Assembly (NCBI GenBank): GCA_038231275.1
Contig: JBBRLQ010000020.1
Coordinates: 64,001 to 128,000, forward strand
Direction: 5' to 3'
Length of the DNA stretch: 64,000 nt
From: Polyangiales bacterium
GTDB taxonomy: Bacteria; Myxococcota_A; Polyangia; Polyangiales; Polyangiaceae
Shown here: in pieces, positions 23,396 to 36,103 of the stretch
Layout of the letters: each line of letters begins with the position of its first letter
How positions within the stretch are numbered: the first letter of the stretch is position 1
Made by a program: the position numbers and the translations under genes
The notes under the pieces: model-generated
Database searches by the model: none
The model's input: the letters and a program-made list of their open reading frames with translations, nothing else
What the model was told of the DNA's origin: nothing

Positions 23396-26300
23396 ATGCG
23401 TCCCGTCACGCTCCGCACGCGCATCCTCGTCCGCGAGCTCGCCAGCGGCGAGGTGCTGGCCATCCCGGTCTGCGATCCCGCGCACGCCAGCTTCGGCGGC
23501 GAAGAGGACGCGCTGCTCGAGCAGTCGATGTTCCTCTCCGAGCACCTCGCGCGCGCGAGGCCGGAGACCGTCGCGCGCTTCGCCATACCGGAGGGCACAC
23601 GTTTGCATATTACACGCGTCCTCGTCCCCCGCGAGGAGCTGCCGCACGCCGTCGCGGTCACCCAGCCGATCGAAATCCCGAGTGTCGTCATCCCGTCCAC
23701 CGCGCGCGCGAAGAGCGACGCATGGGTGGTGATCGTGCCGCTCGACTACACGTTCTTCGTCCCCGCGGGCGAGGACCTGGACGAGGCCGTGAAGAGCGAG
23801 GTGCTCCGCCTCGTCGCCGCGGAGGAGGCGGGCGCGACGCACTACCTCGGCCTCTTGCCGGGCGTTCACGATCGCCTCGAGCCGCTCGACGTGAGGATCG
23901 ATCGCTCGTCCGACGGACCGGCGGGGCGCGCGGCGTCCCATCGCAAGGCGATCGCGCAGCGCGAGAAGCGCAAGCACGCGGTGCTCGTCCTCGAGTCGGT
24001 CGCGACGCCGCTGCATCAAGACGAGGCGCGCGCGCGGCCGATGCTCGGACGCGACGCCGACGCCAAGCTCCTCGCGGGCATTCTGGGCGGCGACGAGCGG
24101 CAGAGCGTGGTCCTGGTCGGCGAGCCGAAGGTCGGCAAGACGGCGCTCTTTCGCGCGTGGCTCGCCGCCGAAGTGGAGGCCGGACGTCCGCGCCTCGTGT
24201 ACGCGACGAGCGGCGCGCAGCTCATCGCGGGAATGAGCGGCCTCGGGCAGTGGCAAGAGCGCGTTCGCCGCGTGATGGACGCCGCGCACACGCTCGACGC
24301 CATCCTCTACTTCGACGATCTCGCCGATCTCTTCAGCGAGCGGGCGCACGGGATCGATCTCGGCGGCGCGATGAAGCCGTGGTTGGAGGAGGGCAGAGTG
24401 CGCCTCGTCGGCGAGCTCGCCAAAGATCGCGCGGAGGTGGTCGAGAGCCGCCACGTCGGCTTCTTCTCGTGCACCAGCCGCATTCGCCTCGAGCCGATGT
24501 CTCCGGTGCAGGCCCTCGTGGCCCTCCGCGCGCACGCCGCGGCCGACGGCAAGCACGAGCCGCACGCCGTTCAGGTCGCCGACGACGCGCTCGTCGCGAT
24601 TTGCGATCTCGCCGAGCGGTACCTCCCCTACGAAGCGTTCCCCGGAAAGGCGGCGCGCTTGTACGACGATCTGCGCGCGAGCCAAGAGCTCGGGAGGAGC
24701 CGCGCAGAGGGTGCACCGGCGCCCCGACTCTCGGCCGGCGACGTGTTCGATTGGTTCAGCGTGCGCACCGGCGTGCCGCCGTTCCTCCTCCGCGACGACG
24801 CGGCGCTCCGGCAGGAGTGGATCGCCGCGCATTTCGATCGACGCTTGATCGGGCAAGATGACGCGAAGGCGCGCGTGCGAGGCACCATCGCCGTCGTGAA
24901 GGCGGGGCTCCAGCCCGCGGGAAAGCCGCTCGCGACGTTCCTCTTCGTGGGCCCCACCGGCGTCGGCAAGACGGAGCTCGCGCGCGCGACGGCGGAGCTG
25001 CTCTTCGGCCACGCCGATCGCCTGGTTCGCTTCGACATGAGCGAGTACACCGACCCGTGGGCGGCCGAGCGCCTGATCCGCGGCACCGAGCGCGGCGACG
25101 GTCTCCTCACGCGAAAAGTGCGCGAGCAGCCGTTCTCGGTCGTGCTCCTCGACGAGATCGAGAAGGCCCACCCCGCGGTGTTCGATCTGCTCCTCCAGGT
25201 GTGCGGCGAAGGGCGCCTCACCGACGGGCGCGGAAAGACCGCGTACTTTCACAACACGATCCTCATCATGACGAGCAACCTCGGCGCCGCGCACCGCAGA
25301 GGCGCGGTCGGCTTCGAGGGGACCGGCGCGTCCGACGACGGGTACTACGTGAAGGAGGTCGAGAAGACGTTCCGGCCGGAGATGGTCAACCGGATTGATC
25401 GCATCGTCGCGTTCCGGACCCTCACGCGCGACGAGATCCGCGCGGTCACGCGCCTCACGGTGGAGCGCGTGCGCACGCGGCGCGGGCTCGCCCAGGGCGC
25501 TTTGGAGCTCGTCGTCTCCGACGCCGCCCTCGCGCACCTCGCGGAGCGCGGCTTCAGCGACGCGTACGGCGCGCGGGCGCTGCGGAGGCACGTCGAGGAT
25601 CACCTCACCACCCCGGTCGCGCGCCTCCTCACGAGCCTGACCCACGGCGGCGGCCGCGACATCGTCGACGTGCGAACGGCCGACGAGCCCGAGTACGAAG
25701 GCACCTCGAACCTCGTCACGCGCGCGTCGTCGGGCGGCCTCGTCTTCTCGCTCCTCGGCAAGCCGCGCGGCCTCACGGCGCCGATGACCAGCGTCTGGGC
25801 CCTCTCCGAATTGCGGCGCGAGCTCCAGAAGTACATGCGCCTCGACCGCGTGACCGAGCTCAAGGCGCAGCTCGAGTTCGTGATCGCGCAGCTCAGCTAC
25901 GGGGAGCCGGGGAAGAAGAAGAAGGGGTCGGAGCTCGCGCGCGCCGGCTCGGAGGTCGGCCGCCTCTCCTCCGAGCACCACAAGCTCCACGAGGTGTGGT
26001 CGGCGCTCGAGGGCGCGTACACGGATCTCCAGAGCGCCGAGGAGCTGGGCTTCGCGGCCTTCTTCGCGGGCGAGCGCTTCGACGCGCTCCTCGAGGAGGC
26101 GCACGCGATCAAGGCGCGCTTCCGCGCGGGGCTCCTCCAGGCGCTCACGTGCCGCGATCCGAAGCGCTTCGGCGTGACGCTGCTCCTCCAGGAGCTCGAC
26201 GACGGCCGCGCGTTCGACGCCTGGCTCGCGCCGCTCCTCGACGCGTGCGACGCGCGAGGCTGGGAGCTGGAGCTTCACGTCGACGCGAACACCAAGGAGG

Positions 26301-26929
26301 ATCGCGCGGGGACCAAGTGGCCCGAAGCGCGCCGCTGGGGTCCGCCGCGAACCGCCAAGGCGTTCAAGGACGTGCTCGGGGATCGGGGTCGAACCTTCAA
26401 GAACGTGCTCCTCCGGGCGCGCGGGCCGAGCGTCGGCATCCTCCTGGGACTGGAGGGCGGCCTCCATCGCTTCCACGACGTGCACCCCGACGTCCGCCCC
26501 TGCCACATGCTCGCGATGCGCATCGCCTTTCGCGCGACGCTCAAGGACGACGACTGGCTCTCGCCGACGATCGCGCCGCCTCTACCCGCCGCCGCCGATC
26601 ACGCGCGCCGACAACAACCCACGCGCGAGGTGCTCGCCAACGAAGGGGTCGTCCACGTCTTCGCCAAGCGCGCGGTCCTCAAGATCCCGCTCGCCGACTA
26701 CTGGTCCCGCTTCGACGAGATCGCGCTCGAGCACCTGCTTCTCTTCGAGACGCGCGACGATCTCGATCGCGACGTGACCCTCGCCGCCATCTTCGAAGAC
26801 GAGTGGGACGACGTCACGGAGCTCGTTCGCCAAGGGCACCTCATCGAGGCGAACAAGCGGTACCGCGAACGCGCGGGAGTCGGGCTCAAGGAGGCGAAGG
26901 ACTACGTCGACTCGCTGAGGGGCAGCTGA
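23396..26929 (+). CDS. ClpA/B-type double AAA+ ATPase 1 with C-terminal RF2-like and bL12-CTD-like modules
   Basis: GEPKVGKT; GPTGVGKTE, FDMSEY, LLDEIEKAH, GRLTD, MTSNLG, YGARALRR. Confidence 0.9.
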   Translation: MRPVTLRTRILVRELASGEVLAIPVCDPAHASFGGEEDALLEQSMFLSEHLARARPETVARFAIPEGTRLHITRVLVPREELPHAVAVTQPIEIPSVVIPSTARAKSDAWVVIVPLDYTFFVPAGEDLDEAVKSEVLRLVAAEEAGATHYLGLLPGVHDRLEPLDVRIDRSSDGPAGRAASHRKAIAQREKRKHAVLVLESVATPLHQDEARARPMLGRDADAKLLAGILGGDERQSVVLVGEPKVGKTALFRAWLAAEVEAGRPRLVYATSGAQLIAGMSGLGQWQERVRRVMDAAHTLDAILYFDDLADLFSERAHGIDLGGAMKPWLEEGRVRLVGELAKDRAEVVESRHVGFFSCTSRIRLEPMSPVQALVALRAHAAADGKHEPHAVQVADDALVAICDLAERYLPYEAFPGKAARLYDDLRASQELGRSRAEGAPAPRLSAGDVFDWFSVRTGVPPFLLRDDAALRQEWIAAHFDRRLIGQDDAKARVRGTIAVVKAGLQPAGKPLATFLFVGPTGVGKTELARATAELLFGHADRLVRFDMSEYTDPWAAERLIRGTERGDGLLTRKVREQPFSVVLLDEIEKAHPAVFDLLLQVCGEGRLTDGRGKTAYFHNTILIMTSNLGAAHRRGAVGFEGTGASDDGYYVKEVEKTFRPEMVNRIDRIVAFRTLTRDEIRAVTRLTVERVRTRRGLAQGALELVVSDAALAHLAERGFSDAYGARALRRHVEDHLTTPVARLLTSLTHGGGRDIVDVRTADEPEYEGTSNLVTRASSGGLVFSLLGKPRGLTAPMTSVWALSELRRELQKYMRLDRVTELKAQLEFVIAQLSYGEPGKKKKGSELARAGSEVGRLSSEHHKLHEVWSALEGAYTDLQSAEELGFAAFFAGERFDALLEEAHAIKARFRAGLLQALTCRDPKRFGVTLLLQELDDGRAFDAWLAPLLDACDARGWELELHVDANTKEDRAGTKWPEARRWGPPRTAKAFKDVLGDRGRTFKNVLLRARGPSVGILLGLEGGLHRFHDVHPDVRPCHMLAMRIAFRATLKDDDWLSPTIAPPLPAAADHARRQQPTREVLANEGVVHVFAKRAVLKIPLADYWSRFDEIALEHLLLFETRDDLDRDVTLAAIFEDEWDDVTELVRQGHLIEANKRYRERAGVGLKEAKDYVDSLRGS

Positions 26930-26931
26930 CG

Positions 26932-29900
26932 ATGCACGTCACCGTCCCGGTCTATCAGAAGCGCGCAGGCCAGAACCTGGAGTGGATCACGCTCGGCCTC
27001 GGCACGCACACCAAGACGCGGGCCGGCACCAACGCGCAGAAAATCCAGGAGAAGCTCACCGACGATCTGCGCCGCGCCGCCGAGGGGGCTCCACCGCGCG
27101 ATCTCCCGTCGTTCCAGCTCAAACGCGGGACTCGCCTCGAGCGCGTGCGCGTCGAGCTCGTGTTGAAGAGCGAGGGACAGAAGCGGAAGCCCTCCGGTCT
27201 CGTCCCGGTGATCGTCGAGCCGCGCGAGGCCGGCGACGGCGCGCGCTTCGTCATCGCGTACCACCCGGCGCGTCAAAGCGAGTGGTTCCCCGTCCGCGAG
27301 GGACAGACGCTGGCCGAGCAAGCCAAGGCGTTCTTCCAAAAGGCGTGGGCGGGCCTCGACGACGAGGCGCTCGGCCTCCTCTGGTCGAACGGCCGCGATC
27401 TGCTGAAAATTCTAGCGTTCTCCTTTCGCCCGCGATCGCTGCTCGACGAGCTGCCCGACAAGAAGAAAGGCATCTGGGACGATCTCGACGCGGATCCGGC
27501 GCGGCAGAAGCAGAAGAAGGCGCCGGCCGGCATGCAGGTCTTGCCGCGGCTCGGCGTCGATCTCACCGCGCGCGCCGAGACTCGCCGCGACCAGGCCAGG
27601 CCGCGCCCGCCCTACCGCGAGCAGCTCCAGAGCCTCCTCTCTGCGGCGAAGAAGCAGTCGACGCTGCTGGTCGGCGCGCACGGGGTCGGGAAATCGACGC
27701 TGCTCGATCAATGGATCTTGGATCTGATGGAGGCGGAGGACTTCCCGTCGCACCGGAACCTCGACCGCGTGACCCACGTGTGGTCGCTGGGCGGCAAGCA
27801 GCTCATCGCCGGGATGTCGTATGTCGGCGATTGGGAGAAGCGCTGCGTCGATTTGCTCGAGGACGTACGCGGTCGCAAGGTGGTCCTCATCGTCCACGAT
27901 TTGCACCTTTTCGGGCAGATCGGCCGCGCGCGGGACAGCGATCGCGCGCTCGCCGATTTCTTCCGCGGGCCGCTCGCGCGCGGGGAGATCGTCCTCGCCG
28001 GCGAGTGCACGGCCGAGCAGCTGCGGCGCCTCGAGGAGGACGCGCCGGCCTTCGCGGCGCTTTTCGCGCGCGTCTTCGTCCGCGAGGCGACGAGCGAGGA
28101 GACCTTCCGCATGATGGTCGGCACTGCGCGGCGGCTCGAGATGGAGAGGAACGTCACGTTCGACGCGTGGGCCTTCCAGACGATCCTCGAGCTCGGCGCC
28201 GCGCTCTTCCCGTCGCACGCGCTGCCGGGAAAGGCCATCGACATGCTCGAGCGCCTCGCCCACGAGCACGACGCGGAAGAAGGCGACGATGCGACCGACA
28301 TCGACGGCGATCTGGTCACCGATCACTTGACCGAGCGCACCGGCCTCCCGTACCGCCTGATCTCTCCGGGCGGCACGCTGAAGCAGAGCGACGTCGAGGC
28401 AGCGCTCGCGCTGAAGGTCATGGGGCAGCCCGAGGCGGTCGCGGCCGCCGCCGATGTCGTGGTGCGCGTGCGCGCAGGGCTCACGGATCCGAAGCGTCCT
28501 TACGCCGTTCATCTGTTCACGGGGCCGACGGGCACCGGCAAGACCGAGCTGGCGAAGGCGCTCGCCGAGTACCTGTACGGCGGGCCGTCGCGCCTCCTCC
28601 GGCTCGACATGAGCGAGTTCGGCTCCGCAGACGCCGTCGCGCGTCTCATCGGCGACGCGTGGACGCCGGACGGTCTCCTCACGAGCGCGATCAAAGAGCA
28701 GCCGTTCAGCGTAGTGCTCCTCGACGAGATCGAGAAGGCGCATCCCGCGGTGCACAACCTCCTCCTCCAGCTCTTCGACGAGGGCCGCCTCACCGACGCG
28801 GCGGGCAACGCGGTGAGCTTCCTCCAGTCGGTCGTGGTGATGACGTCGAACCTCGGCGCACGCACGCGGCCGCCGATGGGGTTCACGGAGGCGCCCGATC
28901 AAGTGATGCTCGAGATCGCGCGCGCGGTGCGCGAGTTCTTCCCGCCGGAGCTGTGGAACCGCATCGATCGCGTCGTGCCGTTCCGGCCGCTCTCGCGCGA
29001 GGTCGCGGTCGACGTGGCGCAGAAGGAGCTCGCGAAGCTCCTCGGCCGACGCGGACTCGCCGATCGCAACATCTTCGTCCACGCCAACCGCGCCGTGGTC
29101 GAGCGGGTCGCCGCCGACGCGTTCCGCCAAGAGGACGGGGCGCGCTCGCTGAAGCGCTTCCTCGAGGATCGCATCGGGTCGCGCCTCAGCGAAGAGATCG
29201 CGAAGGCCCCCAACGCGGCGCTCCAGGTCGTTCGCCTCTTCGACGGTGAGGACGGCTTCGTCCTCGAGCACGAGCCGCTCGTGGAGGCCGAGCCGTGCGG
29301 AGATCGTTTCGCGCTCGAGCCGCTCCTCGAGCTGCCCTTGGCGGACCTCCAGGCGCGCCTCCCGGAGCTGGTGACGAGCCTCGACGAGATCGAGAAGAGC
29401 CCGCGTTTCCTCGCGATCGAGCAGCAAATCATACGTCTCCTCGCCGCCCGGCGCGAGGGACGGGTCGACGCCGGCGACACGATCTTCGATCTGGATTGGA
29501 CGCGCGCGAGCCTGAAGGCGTTCCGCGACAAGATCGAGCGCCTGAGCGTCGCGTCGCGCGATCTCGGATACGAAGAGCTCGAGGCGCGGCAGTTCGGGAC
29601 GCAAGAGGTCGAGGTCGGCGGCGCGCTCGTGCGCATGCGCGTCCTCTCACGCCTCGGCGAGCGAGACTCGGCGCGCGCCATCACGCGGCGTGAGCTCCTC
29701 GAGTGCTTCGCGCAGGTGCAGTTCCTCGCGCGGGCGCTGGGGAAGGTGCATGACCCCACGCAGCACGCCGTGAAGGTGGAGGTGCTGCCGATCGGGAGCG
29801 CGGCGTCGCTCGCGAAGTGGCTCGCGGCAGCCTACGCGGGAAAGTGGGGGCAGCTCGCCGGCTACGCGACGCTCGCGCGCGGGACGGCGCTCGAGGGAAC

Positions 29901-30342
29901 CGACAAGCGCCACCTCGCCGTCGCGCTCGAGGCGAAGCCGGACCTCATCGTGCTGCGCATCCAGGGCATGTGCGTGCGCGACTTCGCGGAGCTCGAGACC
30001 GGCACCCACGTCTGGCAAGGCGCGACGACGGCCCCGGAGCTGGTGCGCGTGCGCGTGCTCACCGACGACGGTCGCCCGCTCGCCGATCACGTCGAGGAGC
30101 ACCGGCGGCGGCGCGACGCGTTCGAGAAGGCCGCGATCGCCCCGGGGCGCGAGGCCGAGAACCCGTCGCGCCTCCTCCCGATCGCACGCACGATCCGCTT
30201 CGATCCGCCGCGCGCCGGCCTGGCCCCGCTCGCGCTCGAGGATTTCGCGATGGGGCACGGCGGGACGTTCCACGTGAAGACGATCGCCGAGGCGCTCGGC
30301 ACGCTGTGGCTCCTTCGCATGACGCGGGAGGCGCGCGCATGA
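26932..30342 (+). CDS. ClpA/B-type double AAA+ ATPase 2 with C-terminal RF-like module
   Basis: GAHGVGKS; GPTGTGKTE, LDMSEF, LLDEIEKAH, MTSNLG, GARSLKR. Confidence 0.9.
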   Translation: MHVTVPVYQKRAGQNLEWITLGLGTHTKTRAGTNAQKIQEKLTDDLRRAAEGAPPRDLPSFQLKRGTRLERVRVELVLKSEGQKRKPSGLVPVIVEPREAGDGARFVIAYHPARQSEWFPVREGQTLAEQAKAFFQKAWAGLDDEALGLLWSNGRDLLKILAFSFRPRSLLDELPDKKKGIWDDLDADPARQKQKKAPAGMQVLPRLGVDLTARAETRRDQARPRPPYREQLQSLLSAAKKQSTLLVGAHGVGKSTLLDQWILDLMEAEDFPSHRNLDRVTHVWSLGGKQLIAGMSYVGDWEKRCVDLLEDVRGRKVVLIVHDLHLFGQIGRARDSDRALADFFRGPLARGEIVLAGECTAEQLRRLEEDAPAFAALFARVFVREATSEETFRMMVGTARRLEMERNVTFDAWAFQTILELGAALFPSHALPGKAIDMLERLAHEHDAEEGDDATDIDGDLVTDHLTERTGLPYRLISPGGTLKQSDVEAALALKVMGQPEAVAAAADVVVRVRAGLTDPKRPYAVHLFTGPTGTGKTELAKALAEYLYGGPSRLLRLDMSEFGSADAVARLIGDAWTPDGLLTSAIKEQPFSVVLLDEIEKAHPAVHNLLLQLFDEGRLTDAAGNAVSFLQSVVVMTSNLGARTRPPMGFTEAPDQVMLEIARAVREFFPPELWNRIDRVVPFRPLSREVAVDVAQKELAKLLGRRGLADRNIFVHANRAVVERVAADAFRQEDGARSLKRFLEDRIGSRLSEEIAKAPNAALQVVRLFDGEDGFVLEHEPLVEAEPCGDRFALEPLLELPLADLQARLPELVTSLDEIEKSPRFLAIEQQIIRLLAARREGRVDAGDTIFDLDWTRASLKAFRDKIERLSVASRDLGYEELEARQFGTQEVEVGGALVRMRVLSRLGERDSARAITRRELLECFAQVQFLARALGKVHDPTQHAVKVEVLPIGSAASLAKWLAAAYAGKWGQLAGYATLARGTALEGTDKRHLAVALEAKPDLIVLRIQGMCVRDFAELETGTHVWQGATTAPELVRVRVLTDDGRPLADHVEEHRRRRDAFEKAAIAPGREAENPSRLLPIARTIRFDPPRAGLAPLALEDFAMGHGGTFHVKTIAEALGTLWLLRMTREARA

Positions 30343-32618
30343 GCAAGAAGAGCCTTCGCGTGTATTTCGTCGACCACGGCGTCGAGAAGAAGTCCGGCAT
30401 GCTCCTCCGCGTGTGGGACAACTTCTTCGACCGCCCGCCGCCCGCCGCGTTCGGCGCGAGCGAAGCCGACATCCTGGAGCAGCTGGAGCAGCAGCTCGCC
30501 GAGCTCGAGGCAGAGACCGCGGGCGAGCTCGAGCGCTACCTGTGGGACGAGACCTTCGCGACGCGCGAGGTGCGCATCGTCGTGCACCCGCGCTCCTCGA
30601 TCAAGAAGCGCGCAGTCATCGGGAAGAAGGAGATCCCGATGACGCTGACGTATGCATACTGCAAGCTCCCGGGCGGAGGCTTCCGCGTGATGGTGCCGCG
30701 CTTCGGCGGGTGGTTCATCCTCGAGGATCTCGCGCTGGCCCCCGAGGTGCTGCGCCACGCGGTGTCGAGCTGGCTGCTCGGCGAGAACCCGCGCTGGGTC
30801 TACGACTTCCGTCACGAAGGCGAGGAGGTCGTTCGCGAGTGGGCGCCGGCGATCTTGAAGCGGACGCCACCGCGCGCGTCCACCGAGGCCGCGGGCGACG
30901 CGATGCCGACGACCGCGCAGGTCGCCGAAGAGCTCGTCGAGCGCGCGGCGAAGGGGAAGCTGCCGATGCCGGTCGGCGCGTCCCCGGAGCTCGCGCGCGC
31001 GACCAGCGATCTCGCGAAGCTGCCGCCGACGTCGATCCTCCTCGTGGGCCCCAGCGGCGTCGGCAAGACGGCGTGGGTGCGCCGCGCCGCGCATCTGTTC
31101 GTGACCTGGCGACGGCAGCCGAACAAGAAGGCGCCGCGCATCTGGGCGACGAGCGCGGACCGGATCATCGCGGGGATGGTCTACCTGGGCCAGTGGCAGG
31201 AGCGGTGCATCGCGCTGGTGCGCGAGCTGTCGCACGAGGGGGACTACCTCTACGTCGATCGCCTGGCGCCCCTCCTGCGGCCGCAGCCCGACGGCTCCAG
31301 CATCGCGGACTTCCTCGAGCCCGCGCTGGCGGCGGGCGAGCTCAGCCTCATTGCAGAGTGCACGGAATCGGAGCTCGAACGCATGCTCCGCGAGCGCCCG
31401 ACGCTGGTGGGTCGCTTCTCGCTCGTGCGCATCGCCGAACCGTCGCAAGAGGCGGTGCTGGAGCTCGTGGGCCTGTACGCGCAGAAGCGCGGCGGGACGG
31501 CGCTGCACGCGTCCAGCCTGAAGCGAATGGTTCGTCACCTCGCGTCGTTTCAGCGGTCGACCGCGTTTCCGGGAAAGGCGATTCGCTTCGTCGACTGGCT
31601 CGCGAAGGAAGGGGCGAACAAGACGCTCTATCCGCGCGACGTCTCCGAGGCCTTCTCGCGCTACTCGGGGCTCCCGCTGGAGCTGATCAGCGACGACTAC
31701 CCTGCCAGCGCCGAGGCCCTCGCCGGAGCGCTCAAGGCGCGCGTCGTCGGGCAGGACGAGGCGTGCGACGCGTGCGGACGAATGCTCGCGCGCTTCAAGG
31801 CGATGATGACCGATCCCGAGCGACCGACCGGGGCGCTGCTCTTCGTCGGCCCCACCGGCGTCGGAAAGACCGAGCTCGCCAAGCAGCTCGCGCGCACGAC
31901 GTTCGGCGACGCGAAGCGGATGATCCGCCTCGACATGAGCGAGTACATGCTGCGCGGCGCGGCGAATCGGCTGCTCGACACCTCCCCGGGCGTGCGGAGC
32001 CTCGCCGCGCAGGTGCACGAGGAGCCGCTCTCGCTCGTGCTGCTGGACGAGATCGAGAAGGCGCACCCCGAGGTGTTCGATCTTCTCCTCGGCGTGCTCG
32101 GCGAGGGGCGCATGACGGACTCGAGCGGGCGCCTCGTCGACTTTCGCGGGACGATCGTGATCATGACCTCGAACCTCGGCGTGACCGATCGCATGCCGGT
32201 CGGCTTCGGGGACGCGCTGCCCGGAGATTTCCTGCGCCACGTCCGCGCGCATTTTCGGCCGGAGCTGTGGAACCGCATCGACCACGTCTTGCCGTTCCGG
32301 CACCTCGCGAAGGAGGACGTCGCGCGCATCGTGGATCTCGAGATCGCGGCGCTCGGCGCGCGGACGGGGCTCGTGCGGCGCGCGGTGCGGCTCGAGGTGA
32401 GCGTCGCCGCGCGGGCATGGCTCGCCGAGCGCGGGTACCACCCGACCCGCGGCGCCCGTCCGCTCAAGCGGCTCATCGAGGAGCGCGTGATGACGCCGCT
32501 GGCCGCGCGCCTCGCCGCCGAGACGGCGCTGAAGGACGGCGTCGCGCGGGTCGTCTGCGAGGGCGAGGGCGAGAGCGGGGCGGCGCGCGGCCCCCTGATC
32601 ACCTTGACGTTGGGCTGA
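30339..32618 (+). CDS. ClpA/B-type double AAA+ ATPase 3 (no C-terminal extension)
   Basis: ATGA overlap; GPSGVGKT; GPTGVGKTE, LLDEIEKAH, GARPLKR. Confidence 0.9.
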   Translation: MSKKSLRVYFVDHGVEKKSGMLLRVWDNFFDRPPPAAFGASEADILEQLEQQLAELEAETAGELERYLWDETFATREVRIVVHPRSSIKKRAVIGKKEIPMTLTYAYCKLPGGGFRVMVPRFGGWFILEDLALAPEVLRHAVSSWLLGENPRWVYDFRHEGEEVVREWAPAILKRTPPRASTEAAGDAMPTTAQVAEELVERAAKGKLPMPVGASPELARATSDLAKLPPTSILLVGPSGVGKTAWVRRAAHLFVTWRRQPNKKAPRIWATSADRIIAGMVYLGQWQERCIALVRELSHEGDYLYVDRLAPLLRPQPDGSSIADFLEPALAAGELSLIAECTESELERMLRERPTLVGRFSLVRIAEPSQEAVLELVGLYAQKRGGTALHASSLKRMVRHLASFQRSTAFPGKAIRFVDWLAKEGANKTLYPRDVSEAFSRYSGLPLELISDDYPASAEALAGALKARVVGQDEACDACGRMLARFKAMMTDPERPTGALLFVGPTGVGKTELAKQLARTTFGDAKRMIRLDMSEYMLRGAANRLLDTSPGVRSLAAQVHEEPLSLVLLDEIEKAHPEVFDLLLGVLGEGRMTDSSGRLVDFRGTIVIMTSNLGVTDRMPVGFGDALPGDFLRHVRAHFRPELWNRIDHVLPFRHLAKEDVARIVDLEIAALGARTGLVRRAVRLEVSVAARAWLAERGYHPTRGARPLKRLIEERVMTPLAARLAAETALKDGVARVVCEGEGESGAARGPLITLTLG

Positions 32619-35600
32619 TGGATCCCCTCGACGACGCGCCCGACGGGCATTGGCTCGGATCTCTGGAACGGCACGATTTGCGGCGATTGCTGGGTGCGCG
32701 ATCGCTCGCCATCGCGCTCGCGAGCCACCTCCGGTACGCGTCCGCGCCGCGGCGCGAAGGGGCGGACGTCGTCGCGGCGGTGACCGACGACGGCGCGGCG
32801 ACCGACGAGACGTTCCAGGTCGCCCTGCGCATCGACGCCGACGGCGCGCTGGTCGGCAAATGCTCGCGGTGCGCGGCGCTGTTCGGCCCATGCGTGCACG
32901 TCGGCGTCGTCGCGGTGGACCTCGCGTGCTCGACGCCGATGCGCGAGGCGCTGCTCGCACGCGAAGGGACGAGCACGATCGCGGACGGAGCGCCGGCGCG
33001 GCGTCGAGGGCTGCACCTCGAGCTCCAGTTCGACGGCGCGCTCGGCGCGTGGGTGGCCCCGGCGGCGCAGCCGATGCCCCTCGAGCTCGCGGCGGGACCT
33101 GCGACGGTCGCCGAGACCGGCCCCGGACGCGCATACGGCGATCGACGCGACGCGCCGGGAGGTCCAACGCTCTCGATCCTCGTCCGCCCGCGCGGCGAGA
33201 AGCGGCTCCTCTCGGGCCGCGAGATCCAAGAGCTCTGCGCGACGGTCGGCAAGCTCCTCCCTCGCGATCGGCGCGTCCTCGAGCACGCGCGGGATCGCGG
33301 CAACAAGAAGGCGGTCTTCGCCGCCGGCGTCGAGGCGTCGTTGGCGCTCGAGGCGATGCGCCTGCACGGCGCGGTGATGACGACCGGGGGAAAGACGGTG
33401 CTTCGCTTCCGCGCGATGCCGGTGAGGCCGGTGCTGCGCCTCGGCCGCGACGCGCCCGATCTTCCACACGGCTTCGACGCCCTCTCGTCGTTCTGGGTCA
33501 CCGCCGACGGCGGCGCGTCGTTTCCGTTCGCGGAGACAACGCTGTTTCCAGGGCCGTTCCCGTACTTGTGGACGCGCGCCGGCGCGATTCACCCCGTGCC
33601 ACCCGACGTCGATCTGGACTTCGCGCGCCAGCTCGCGCGCGCGCCGATCCTGTTCGTGCCGCCCGGCCGCCTCGCCGACGCGGGCACGCAAATCCTCCGA
33701 GCGACGCGCGGGCGCGGGGTGTCGGTGCCATCGCACGAGGTCTTCGGGCTCCCGCCGCTCGAGCCGCCGCGTGTCGTCCTTCGCCTCGAAGGAGAGCCGC
33801 TCGCGGTGGTGGGGACGCTCACCGCGCACTACCGCGGGCGCGCGATCTCGCTCGTCCCTTCGGATCCGTCGGCGCCCGAAGATCGACGGGACCTCGACGC
33901 CGAGGCGCGCGCCGTCGCCCTGGTGGCCCACGTCGCCGACGCCGACGCGAGCGAGGAGCCGGTCTCCGCGCGCGGCGAGCAGGCGATCGCGTTCTGGCGC
34001 GATGGGCTCCCGCACATCCGATCGGCCTACGATCCGCGGATCGAGGTGGAGCTCACGCCGCGCCTCGCGGGCATCCGTGTCGGGGCGCCGCTGACCGGGC
34101 GCGTTCACGTGGTGCTCGAGGGTGACTGGCTCAAGACGCGCCTCGATTTTGCGGCCGGCGATTTGCCGGTGGAGCTCGATCGCGTTCGCACCGCGCTCGC
34201 GAACAAGCAGCGGTGGGTCGAGCTCGACGACGGGACGCTCAGCCGCATCGAGTCGCAGATCGAGTCTCTCGTCGACGAAGCCGGCGCCGTCATGGGCAAG
34301 GCAGCCGAGGCGCTCCTCCCCTTCCACCAGCTCGGGCGGCTCGAGCGATGGATCGACGCGAACGACGGGAGGATCGACGCGGCGACCGCAGCGCTGCGAA
34401 GGCGCCTGCGCGCGCTCTCGGTGGCGCCGGAGCCGCAGCTTCCACGCGGCCTCGAGGGAACCCTGCGGCCGTACCAACTTCACGGCCTGGCGTGGCTTCA
34501 GTTCCTCGAAGAGCTCGGCGCCGGCGGGATCCTGGCCGACGACATGGGGCTCGGAAAGACGATCACGACCCTCGCGTTCCTCCTTCGCCAAAAAGAGGCG
34601 CGCGGCGCGGCGCCGGCCCTCGTCGTGTGCCCCACGTCGGTGGCGACGAATTGGCTTCGCGAGGCCGCGCGCTTCACGCCGTCGCTCTCGCTCCTCCTCT
34701 TCCATGGCCCCTCGCGCGACGCGACCACCCTCGCAAAGGTCGACGTCGCGGTGACGACGTACGCGATCCTCCGCGCGGACATCGACGCGCTCGCGAAGAT
34801 CCCGTTTCGCACGGTGGTCCTGGACGAGGCGCAGAACATCAAGAACCCCGAGAGCGCCACGACGCGGGCGGCGGCGAAGCTCGCAGCGAAGACGCGCCTG
34901 GCGTTGTCGGGCACGCCGATGGAGAACCGCCTGCGCGAGCTCTGGTCGCTCGCGTCGTTCGCGAACCCTGGAATCCTCGGCGCGCCGCGCGCGTTCGAGA
35001 CGCGCTTCGAGCGACCGCTCACCACCGATCGCGCGGCGCCGGTGGCCGCCGAGCTCCGGGCGATCGTGCGTCCGTTCCTGCTGCGTCGAACGAAGGCCGA
35101 CGTCCTCACCGAGCTTCCGCCCAAGACCGAGATCGATCGCGTCGTCACGCTCACCACAGCGGACAAGCGCATGTACGACGCCCTCGCGCACACGCTCCGC
35201 GATGGCCTCACCGAGGACGTGCGCGCGCGCGGGCTGCGGGCGGCGTCTTTGTCCGTCTTCACCGCGCTCACGCGCTTGCGGCAAATGGCGTGCGATCCGC
35301 GGCTCGTGGACCCGAGCCTCGTCGCGGTGGCGAGCGCCAAGCGCGAGGCGTTCCTCGATCTCGTGCGCGAGCTCGTCGCGGAGGGGCGGCGCGCGCTGAT
35401 CTTCTCGCAGTTCGTGCAGCTCCTCACGCTGTGGCGCCGCGATCTCGACGAAGAGCGGATCCCGTACGCGTACCTCGACGGCGCGACGACCAAGCGCGAC
35501 GAGGTGGTCCGCCGCTTCCAGGAAGGGACCGCGCCGCTCTTCCTCATCTCGCTCAAGGCGGGCGGCGTCGGGCTGAACCTCACCGCGGCCGACACGGTCA

Positions 35601-36103
35601 TCCACTGCGATCCGTGGTGGAACCCCGCCGTCGAAGACCAGGCGACCGATCGCGCATACCGCATCGGGCAGGACAAGCCGGTCACCGTGGTCCGCCTCGT
35701 CGCGCGCGGCACGATCGAAGAGAAGATCCTGGCGCTGAAGGCCAAGAAGCGCGACCTCGTCGGCTCCTTCATCGGCGACGACGGAGGCGCCTTGGCCGGC
35801 ATCACAGAGGACGATCTGCGCGCGCTCCTCGGCGACGCGGAGCTCGCCGACGACGACGGCACCGGCGCGCCGGAGGACAAGACCGACGCCCTCGCGACGA
35901 TGACCGAGGTGCTCGACGAGGAGTACTACGCGCTCGTGAAGGAGGCGCGGAGGTGGCTCCTCGAGGTCGGGCGCTTCGAGAGCGCGCTCGCCGAGAAGCT
36001 CGACCTTCCCGAGTCCTTCGCCACCCGCCTGGCGCAAGGGCTCCCGTTTCCATGCTCCCGCGGCCTCGGCGATCGCCTCCGGGCCCGCCTTCGCGTCGCG
36101 TGA
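32618..36103 (+). CDS. SNF2-family helicase-like ATPase with N-terminal SWIM-like Zn finger
   Basis: TGATG overlap; C..C.....CVH; LRPYQ, LADDMGLGKT, LDEAQNIKN, SGTP, GLNLT, QATDRAYRIGQ. Confidence 0.93.
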   Translation: MDPLDDAPDGHWLGSLERHDLRRLLGARSLAIALASHLRYASAPRREGADVVAAVTDDGAATDETFQVALRIDADGALVGKCSRCAALFGPCVHVGVVAVDLACSTPMREALLAREGTSTIADGAPARRRGLHLELQFDGALGAWVAPAAQPMPLELAAGPATVAETGPGRAYGDRRDAPGGPTLSILVRPRGEKRLLSGREIQELCATVGKLLPRDRRVLEHARDRGNKKAVFAAGVEASLALEAMRLHGAVMTTGGKTVLRFRAMPVRPVLRLGRDAPDLPHGFDALSSFWVTADGGASFPFAETTLFPGPFPYLWTRAGAIHPVPPDVDLDFARQLARAPILFVPPGRLADAGTQILRATRGRGVSVPSHEVFGLPPLEPPRVVLRLEGEPLAVVGTLTAHYRGRAISLVPSDPSAPEDRRDLDAEARAVALVAHVADADASEEPVSARGEQAIAFWRDGLPHIRSAYDPRIEVELTPRLAGIRVGAPLTGRVHVVLEGDWLKTRLDFAAGDLPVELDRVRTALANKQRWVELDDGTLSRIESQIESLVDEAGAVMGKAAEALLPFHQLGRLERWIDANDGRIDAATAALRRRLRALSVAPEPQLPRGLEGTLRPYQLHGLAWLQFLEELGAGGILADDMGLGKTITTLAFLLRQKEARGAAPALVVCPTSVATNWLREAARFTPSLSLLLFHGPSRDATTLAKVDVAVTTYAILRADIDALAKIPFRTVVLDEAQNIKNPESATTRAAAKLAAKTRLALSGTPMENRLRELWSLASFANPGILGAPRAFETRFERPLTTDRAAPVAAELRAIVRPFLLRRTKADVLTELPPKTEIDRVVTLTTADKRMYDALAHTLRDGLTEDVRARGLRAASLSVFTALTRLRQMACDPRLVDPSLVAVASAKREAFLDLVRELVAEGRRALIFSQFVQLLTLWRRDLDEERIPYAYLDGATTKRDEVVRRFQEGTAPLFLISLKAGGVGLNLTAADTVIHCDPWWNPAVEDQATDRAYRIGQDKPVTVVRLVARGTIEEKILALKAKKRDLVGSFIGDDGGALAGITEDDLRALLGDAELADDDGTGAPEDKTDALATMTEVLDEEYYALVKEARRWLLEVGRFESALAEKLDLPESFATRLAQGLPFPCSRGLGDRLRARLRVA

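Follow-up and report, generated by a model that had tools for sequence, protein, structure and literature searches.

Organization of the locus

The window analyzed here, a 64,000-nucleotide (nt) stretch of a Polyangiales bacterium genome (contig JBBRLQ010000020.1, positions 64,001 to 128,000), carries three tightly packed Clp-type genes in the order ATPase 1, ATPase 2, and ATPase 3. We report that the C-terminal tail of ATPase 2 (tail 2) descends, in diverged form, from a class-I release factor (RF) and is attached to a Clp ATPase behind its D2 ring. The three genes and the parts of ATPase 2 are as follows.

23396..26929, + strand: ATPase 1, 1177 amino acids (aa); sister gene whose RF-like tail (tail 1) is less diverged and which ends in a piece resembling the L7/L12 C-terminal domain (CTD)
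26932..30342, + strand: ATPase 2, 1136 aa, class I Clp/Hsp100-type, with N-domain, AAA+ D1, AAA+ D2, D2-small, and RF-derived tail
26932..27441, + strand: N-domain of ATPase 2, a homologue of those in ATPases 1 and 3; two beta-beta-beta-alpha units in tandem, similar to a HicB N-domain dimer
27500..29240 (approximate limits), + strand: double AAA+ core of ATPase 2
29317..29739, + strand: helical part of tail 2, equivalent to RF domain 1, with an inserted beta-hairpin; predicted model helices 19-159, aligning with RF N-terminal helices (1zbt, 6szs)
29764..30063, + strand: RF domain 2 equivalent; strand, helix, strands, E-x-G-x-H signature, and a shortened recognition hairpin without SPF/PxT
30064..30180, + strand: slot of RF domain 3 (the GGQ domain); one helix plus a loop (model helix 273-292)
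30181..30321, + strand: RF domain 4 equivalent; R1086 strand, D1104 strand, and terminal helix
30339..32618, + strand: ATPase 3, 759 aa; sister gene, tail-less, its start overlapping the ATPase 2 stop

Tail 2 is homologous to release factors and to tail 1

Residues 778-1136 of ATPase 2 gave no Pfam, NCBIfam, or PDB-sequence match, tail 2 gave no match above cut-off to Pfam PCRF or NCBIfam prfA/prfB, and a BLASTP comparison with the tail of ATPase 1 returned nothing. The link to RFs was established by fold searches with the predicted model and by bridging via a less diverged subfamily. A first search recovered 31 proteins with the tail, and an 18-sequence profile recovered 256 cluster representatives at E<=0.001, of which the best 150 were listed. 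Profile scores reached 43-44 for tail 2 against RFs and 53 for tail 2 against tail 1 (14-sequence profile), versus 19 +/- 2.7 (maximum 25.8) for block-shuffled controls (40 each). The hhalign probability (P) for tail 2 versus tail 1 was 50% with 18 versus 14 sequences, 87% with 153 versus 14, and 95% (E 4e-8) with 153 versus 43. An earlier note, made from the sequence of the window, had set this profile-profile alignment beforehand as the test that could refute its reading of the two tails as RF-like; homology of tail 2 both to tail 1 and to RFs was found. Its description of tail 2 as the more diverged of the two agrees with their scores against RFs (43 for tail 2, 76 for tail 1).

The predicted model of tail 2 contains the domain 2/4 alpha-beta fold of RF1/RF2, and the helical equivalent of RF domain 1 aligns with 1zbt and 6szs as well as in profiles, the sequence motifs of RF domain 1 having been lost. 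All motifs previously quoted from the tail lie in frame within the open reading frame 26932-30342, namely, HAVKVEVLPIG at residue 945 (nt 29764), LAKWLAAAY at 960 (nt 29809), LIVLRIQG...ETGTHVW at 1005 (nt 29944), and IARTIRFD at 1084 (nt 30181). A helical region precedes domain 2, as had been claimed, but the module opens ~8 codons further upstream than first placed (residue ~796, nt ~29317).

Conservation was assessed in an alignment of 153 tails (ATPase 2 itself, 17 taken from loci, and the members of a set of 180 proteins that covered >250 profile positions), in which residue counts are not independent because some tails are close relatives. G1024 was invariant, followed by R1086 (152/153), D1104 (150/153), G1012 (146/153), H1026 (141/153), and E1022 (137/153, with D in 16). 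These residues match G164, E174, G176, H178, R303, and D315, which are invariant or near-invariant among 26 RF1/RF2 sequences, and the G-to-E spacing is 10 in all 153 tails and all 26 RFs. Accordingly, the E.G.H motif and the IARTIRFD strand, which had been singled out as RF-like, do have counterparts conserved in both groups. Other conserved residues are specific to the family: P1083 (143/153), E1103 (137/153), R1039 (131/153), P1078 (129/153), and W1028 (89/153). Tail 2 is a class-I RF descendant, most likely derived from RF2.

Tail 2 has lost the elements for decoding and peptide release

The roles of SPF/PxT, of GGQ, and of domain 1 (RF3 contact) are taken from the portion of PMC8131318 that deals with them. 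GGQ had been noted as absent from tail 2, and there is indeed none, but the loss goes further and takes in the SPF/PxT loop, the GxGG helix tip, and the greater part of domain 3. GGQ strings occur in 8 of the 153 tails, at scattered positions. The domain 3 slot measures 22-66 residues (median 46) in tails versus 104-108 in RFs, and the SPF/PxT hairpin, 21 residues long in 26/26 RFs, is 14 residues long in 148/153 tails, none of which (0/153) has an SPF or PxT motif. At the helix tip, only the first Gly of GxGG is kept (110/153), and the region ranges from 18 to 35 residues. The RF-invariant arginines near these lost elements likewise have no conserved counterpart in the 153 tails. Having lost the GGQ domain, SPF/PxT loop, and GxGG tip, tail 2 is therefore unable to read stop codons or release peptides; what it keeps is the RF body, i.e., the domain 1 helices and the domain 2/4 alpha-beta core. 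The dN/dS of tail 2 is ~0.22, relative to 0.15-0.20 for other parts of the protein (one sequence pair), and the tail is under purifying selection rather than decaying.

The ATPase core and N-domain

ATPase 2 comprises tandem D1 and D2 AAA+ modules plus D2-small, and lacks the ClpB middle domain. D1 has a Walker A motif at nt 27673 and a Walker B motif that, measured against the canonical form with its catalytic Glu, lacks this residue, as does the D1 consensus of all three paralogues. D2 has a Walker A motif at nt 28522, together with an intact Walker B, Arg finger, sensor 2, and xGF loop. The GF of this putative ClpP-docking loop is at least 90% conserved (consensus VGF, MGF in the window ATPase 2). 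The N-domain, which is alpha/beta in the predicted model, has no Pfam Clp-N match, and HicB antitoxin domains were its top VIA rows. ATPase 2 falls below the NCBIfam equivalog cut-offs for ClpA (325 vs 993 bits) and ClpB (323 vs 1232 bits). A tree built from 40 D2 rows unites ATPases 1, 2, and 3 with the single-gene fusions described below in one clade (100/99), outside which lie the five other Clp ATPases of the host genome; the tree does not fix the branching order inside the clade, so that a loss of the tail in ATPase 3 is conjectural.

Distribution, gene order, and single-gene fusions

Named relatives, from which a myxobacterial host is deduced, are proteins of Myxococcales, Polyangiaceae, Sorangium, and Pendulispora. 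Among 301 genomes of the phylum, 14 gave a match to tail 2, or 13 after removal of one spurious match; the ATPase 3 N-domain occurs in the same 13 genomes, and tail 1 in 12 of them. In 15 of 17 other genomes examined, the three genes lie side by side in the order 1-2-3, the exceptions being G201, in which ATPase 1 lies elsewhere, and G285. ATPase 3 lacks a tail, as had been stated; it ends after its D2-small domain and gives no match to the tail profile, and its relatives (745-776 aa) are tail-less in 14/14 aligned. ATPases 1, 2, and 3 are thus a co-inherited set of three paralogues. The division of labor among subunits that had been deduced from the tail-less ATPase 3 is consistent with the conservation of that state and with the co-occurrence of the three genes, but the division itself stays conjectural. 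At one locus (L021:3860-6500), an apparent deletion joins ATPase 1 to ATPase 2 with a frameshift, reflecting an assembly error or a decayed locus.

The bridging subfamily consists of single-gene Clp ATPases with an RF2-like tail (L068:5857-8622, L106:8822-11527, L107:5642-8392, L108:8400-11261, L109:8146-10920, L110:9511-12300, L111:6296-9148, and L112:8138-10912), none of which matches the N-domain profiles; the ATPase part of the L068 protein is degenerate. Their tails have a short hairpin and a shrunken domain 3 that holds Gly-Gly and no Gln. Decoding and catalysis therefore probably disappeared early, and domain 3 at a later stage.

The flanks of the trio are variable. An SNF2 helicase gene (window 32618-36103), whose start overlaps the ATPase 3 stop, is downstream of the trio in 1 of the 17 genomes, the closest relative examined; no recurrent translation or defense neighbor was found among these 17, and no hicA neighbor was seen. 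The L7/L12-CTD-like piece at the end of ATPase 1 (window 26807-26920) is present in 7/14 aligned relatives. Downstream of the trio at a single locus (L069:13998-15424) are two opposite-strand genes, one with an HD-like motif, which have no Pfam matches at 1e-8 and which we presume to resemble RNA-repair pairs. The host genome carries a single copy of tail 2 and its own RF1 and RF2, both with GGQ; a second RF1 gene in this genome (L001, G000:C130), on a 1.6-kb contig, differs from the myxobacterial copy and is possibly contamination. One public DNA contig spans 28718-31367 without mismatch, possibly from the source sample and hence not independent.

Relation to known systems

With RF1/RF2 (PrfB/PrfA; PCRF PF03462 plus RF-1 PF00472), tail 2 shares the fold and order of domains 1 and 2/4, the G-x9-E-x-G-x-H signature, and the R...D pair; it differs in the losses described above, with domain 3 cut to a helix plus loop, and in its fusion to a Clp ATPase. 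It is a homologue, not a member, of that family, just as ATPase 2 is by cut-off neither ClpA nor ClpB. ATPase 2 has in common with ClpA/ClpC two AAA+ modules without the ClpB middle domain, D2-small, and the xGF loop, whereas a HicB-like domain in place of Clp-N, the degenerate D1 Walker B, an altered D2 pore loop, the three paralogues, the RF-derived tail, and scores far below the cut-offs set it apart. The trio family is annotated merely as ClpC or AAA ATPase, and the tail is invisible to Pfam; a 62-member ESM Atlas cluster with ClpB_D2-small plus PCRF indicates that the architecture has been latent in databases.

Known routes of ribosome rescue in bacteria rely on RF paralogues that retain catalytic activity, on tmRNA, or on tagging, after which separate proteases act. 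According to the relevant parts of PMC6514570, PrfH/RFH and ArfB keep the catalytic glutamine, whereas tail 2 has lost the catalytic domain, and PrfH lacks domain 1 and has RtcB as its partner. The same parts of this survey of RF evolution cover ArfB and PrfH and contain no Clp fusion, and we found no description of a Clp-RF fusion in the literature. Vms1/ANKZF1 with Cdc48, as treated there (PMC6514570), offers an analogous coupling of an RF-family domain to an AAA+ ATPase in ribosome quality control, but is non-homologous, having an eRF1-type fold, separate polypeptides, and catalytic activity. The chloroplast protein PrfB3 is, like tail 2, an RF2 homologue minus SPF and GGQ that was retained for another job, yet the pertinent section of PMC5897788 describes it as a stand-alone plant protein that stabilizes petB mRNA and has no ATPase. 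The trio works like no tested system.

Discussion

The conserved trio may represent an undescribed ribosome-acting machine. We propose that ATPases 1, 2, and 3 would co-assemble as one heteromeric ring, with D2 as its main power source, that is probably coupled to ClpP via the xGF loops. Subunits 1 and 2 would use their RF-derived arms for codon-independent, non-catalytic docking at the factor-binding/A-site region of the ribosome; subunit 3 would not need an arm, and arm 2, which has diverged most, may contact RNA less than it braces arm 1. The HicB-like N-domains at the ring entrance would select a client, either a nascent chain that has stalled or a factor bound to the ribosome, which the ring would unfold or degrade. 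To this reading, a mixed, D2-driven, ClpP-feeding ring brought to ribosomes by dead RF arms, we assign a probability of about 0.42. A more detailed form, which we consider doubtful, has the dead RF2 arms docking the heteromeric ring codon-independently on idle or stalled ribosomes, where the HicB-like N-domains would seize dsRBD-fold clients (the hibernation factor HPF/RaiA, release/rescue factors, HicA-type RNases) or the stalled nascent chain and extract them for delivery to ClpP; on that same doubtful form, the RF2-built Clp ring would be a ribosome-directed protease or remodeler of a kind not seen before, and a bacterial counterpart, by analogy, of Cdc48-driven ribosome quality control.

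Several observations weigh against the proposed ribosome-docking ring. Conservation in tail 2 falls on residues that look structural, and the RF decoding-face residues R129, G116-G117, R179, R182, R191, T194, and R317 have no conserved counterpart in the 153 tails. With a length of anywhere from 18 to 35 residues, the helix-tip region is ill suited to a tight fit in the decoding center. No translation or RNA-repair gene was found as a conserved neighbor of the trio, and PrfB3, SPF-less and GGQ-less, sets a precedent for an RF2 homologue active off the ribosome, as far as the section of PMC5897788 devoted to it goes. The MGF loop of the window ATPase 2 is a non-canonical tripeptide. The existence of single-gene Clp-RF2 fusions means that the architecture does not require the trio, and in G285 (93% complete), ATPases 2 and 3 are present but apart, with ATPase 1 not found.

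Some of these points favor exaptation of the tail 2 RF fold off the ribosome, as a scaffold, as an assembly or regulatory domain (e.g., setting subunit order by pairing with tail 1), or as a non-ribosomal RNA- or protein-binding site. We consider such a role possible, and nearly as likely as ribosome docking: every decoding-face and catalytic motif has been lost, new family-specific residues are conserved (R1039, W1028, P1078, P1083, and E1103), the neighbors are not translation-related, and PrfB3, in the same section of PMC5897788, binds an mRNA 3' end. However, the domain 1 plus domain 2/4 layout is kept in three tail lineages (tail 1, tail 2, and single-gene), the single-gene subfamily also retains a degenerate domain 3, a pattern that fits shape mimicry, and an L7/L12-like piece ends ATPase 1 in 7/14 rows. 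The patchy distribution (13/301 genomes), the rapidly diverging tail surface, and the HicB rows for the N-domain would also accord with a decoy or guard in biological conflict, in which the dead RF body baits attackers or binders of RFs or ribosomes while the N-domains catch HicA-type (dsRBD-fold) RNase toxins for destruction via ClpP; this we judge unlikely, and less likely than an off-ribosome role. That tail 2 is a functionless relic of an old fusion, or its RF likeness convergent, might be argued from the absence of a sequence-level RF link in Pfam, NCBIfam, BLAST, and HMMER, from TM-scores of the whole model to RFs of 0.18-0.38, and from weak direct profile matches (P 24% for RF1 alone, 6% for RF2 alone). 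This view is largely refuted, and very improbable, given residues invariant over 153 homologues, the dN/dS of ~0.22, a signature and spacing as in RFs, and the bridging subfamily.

If ribosome docking is correct, a Clp ATPase with its own dead release factor would link the recognition of ribosomes directly to the unfolding or degradation step, and its three-subunit Clp ring would be unusual for bacteria. Even with a role off the ribosome, tail 2 would show clearly how a core translation factor can be put to new use as an accessory domain, in an overlooked system that is testable in cultured myxobacteria (Sorangium and Pendulispora).
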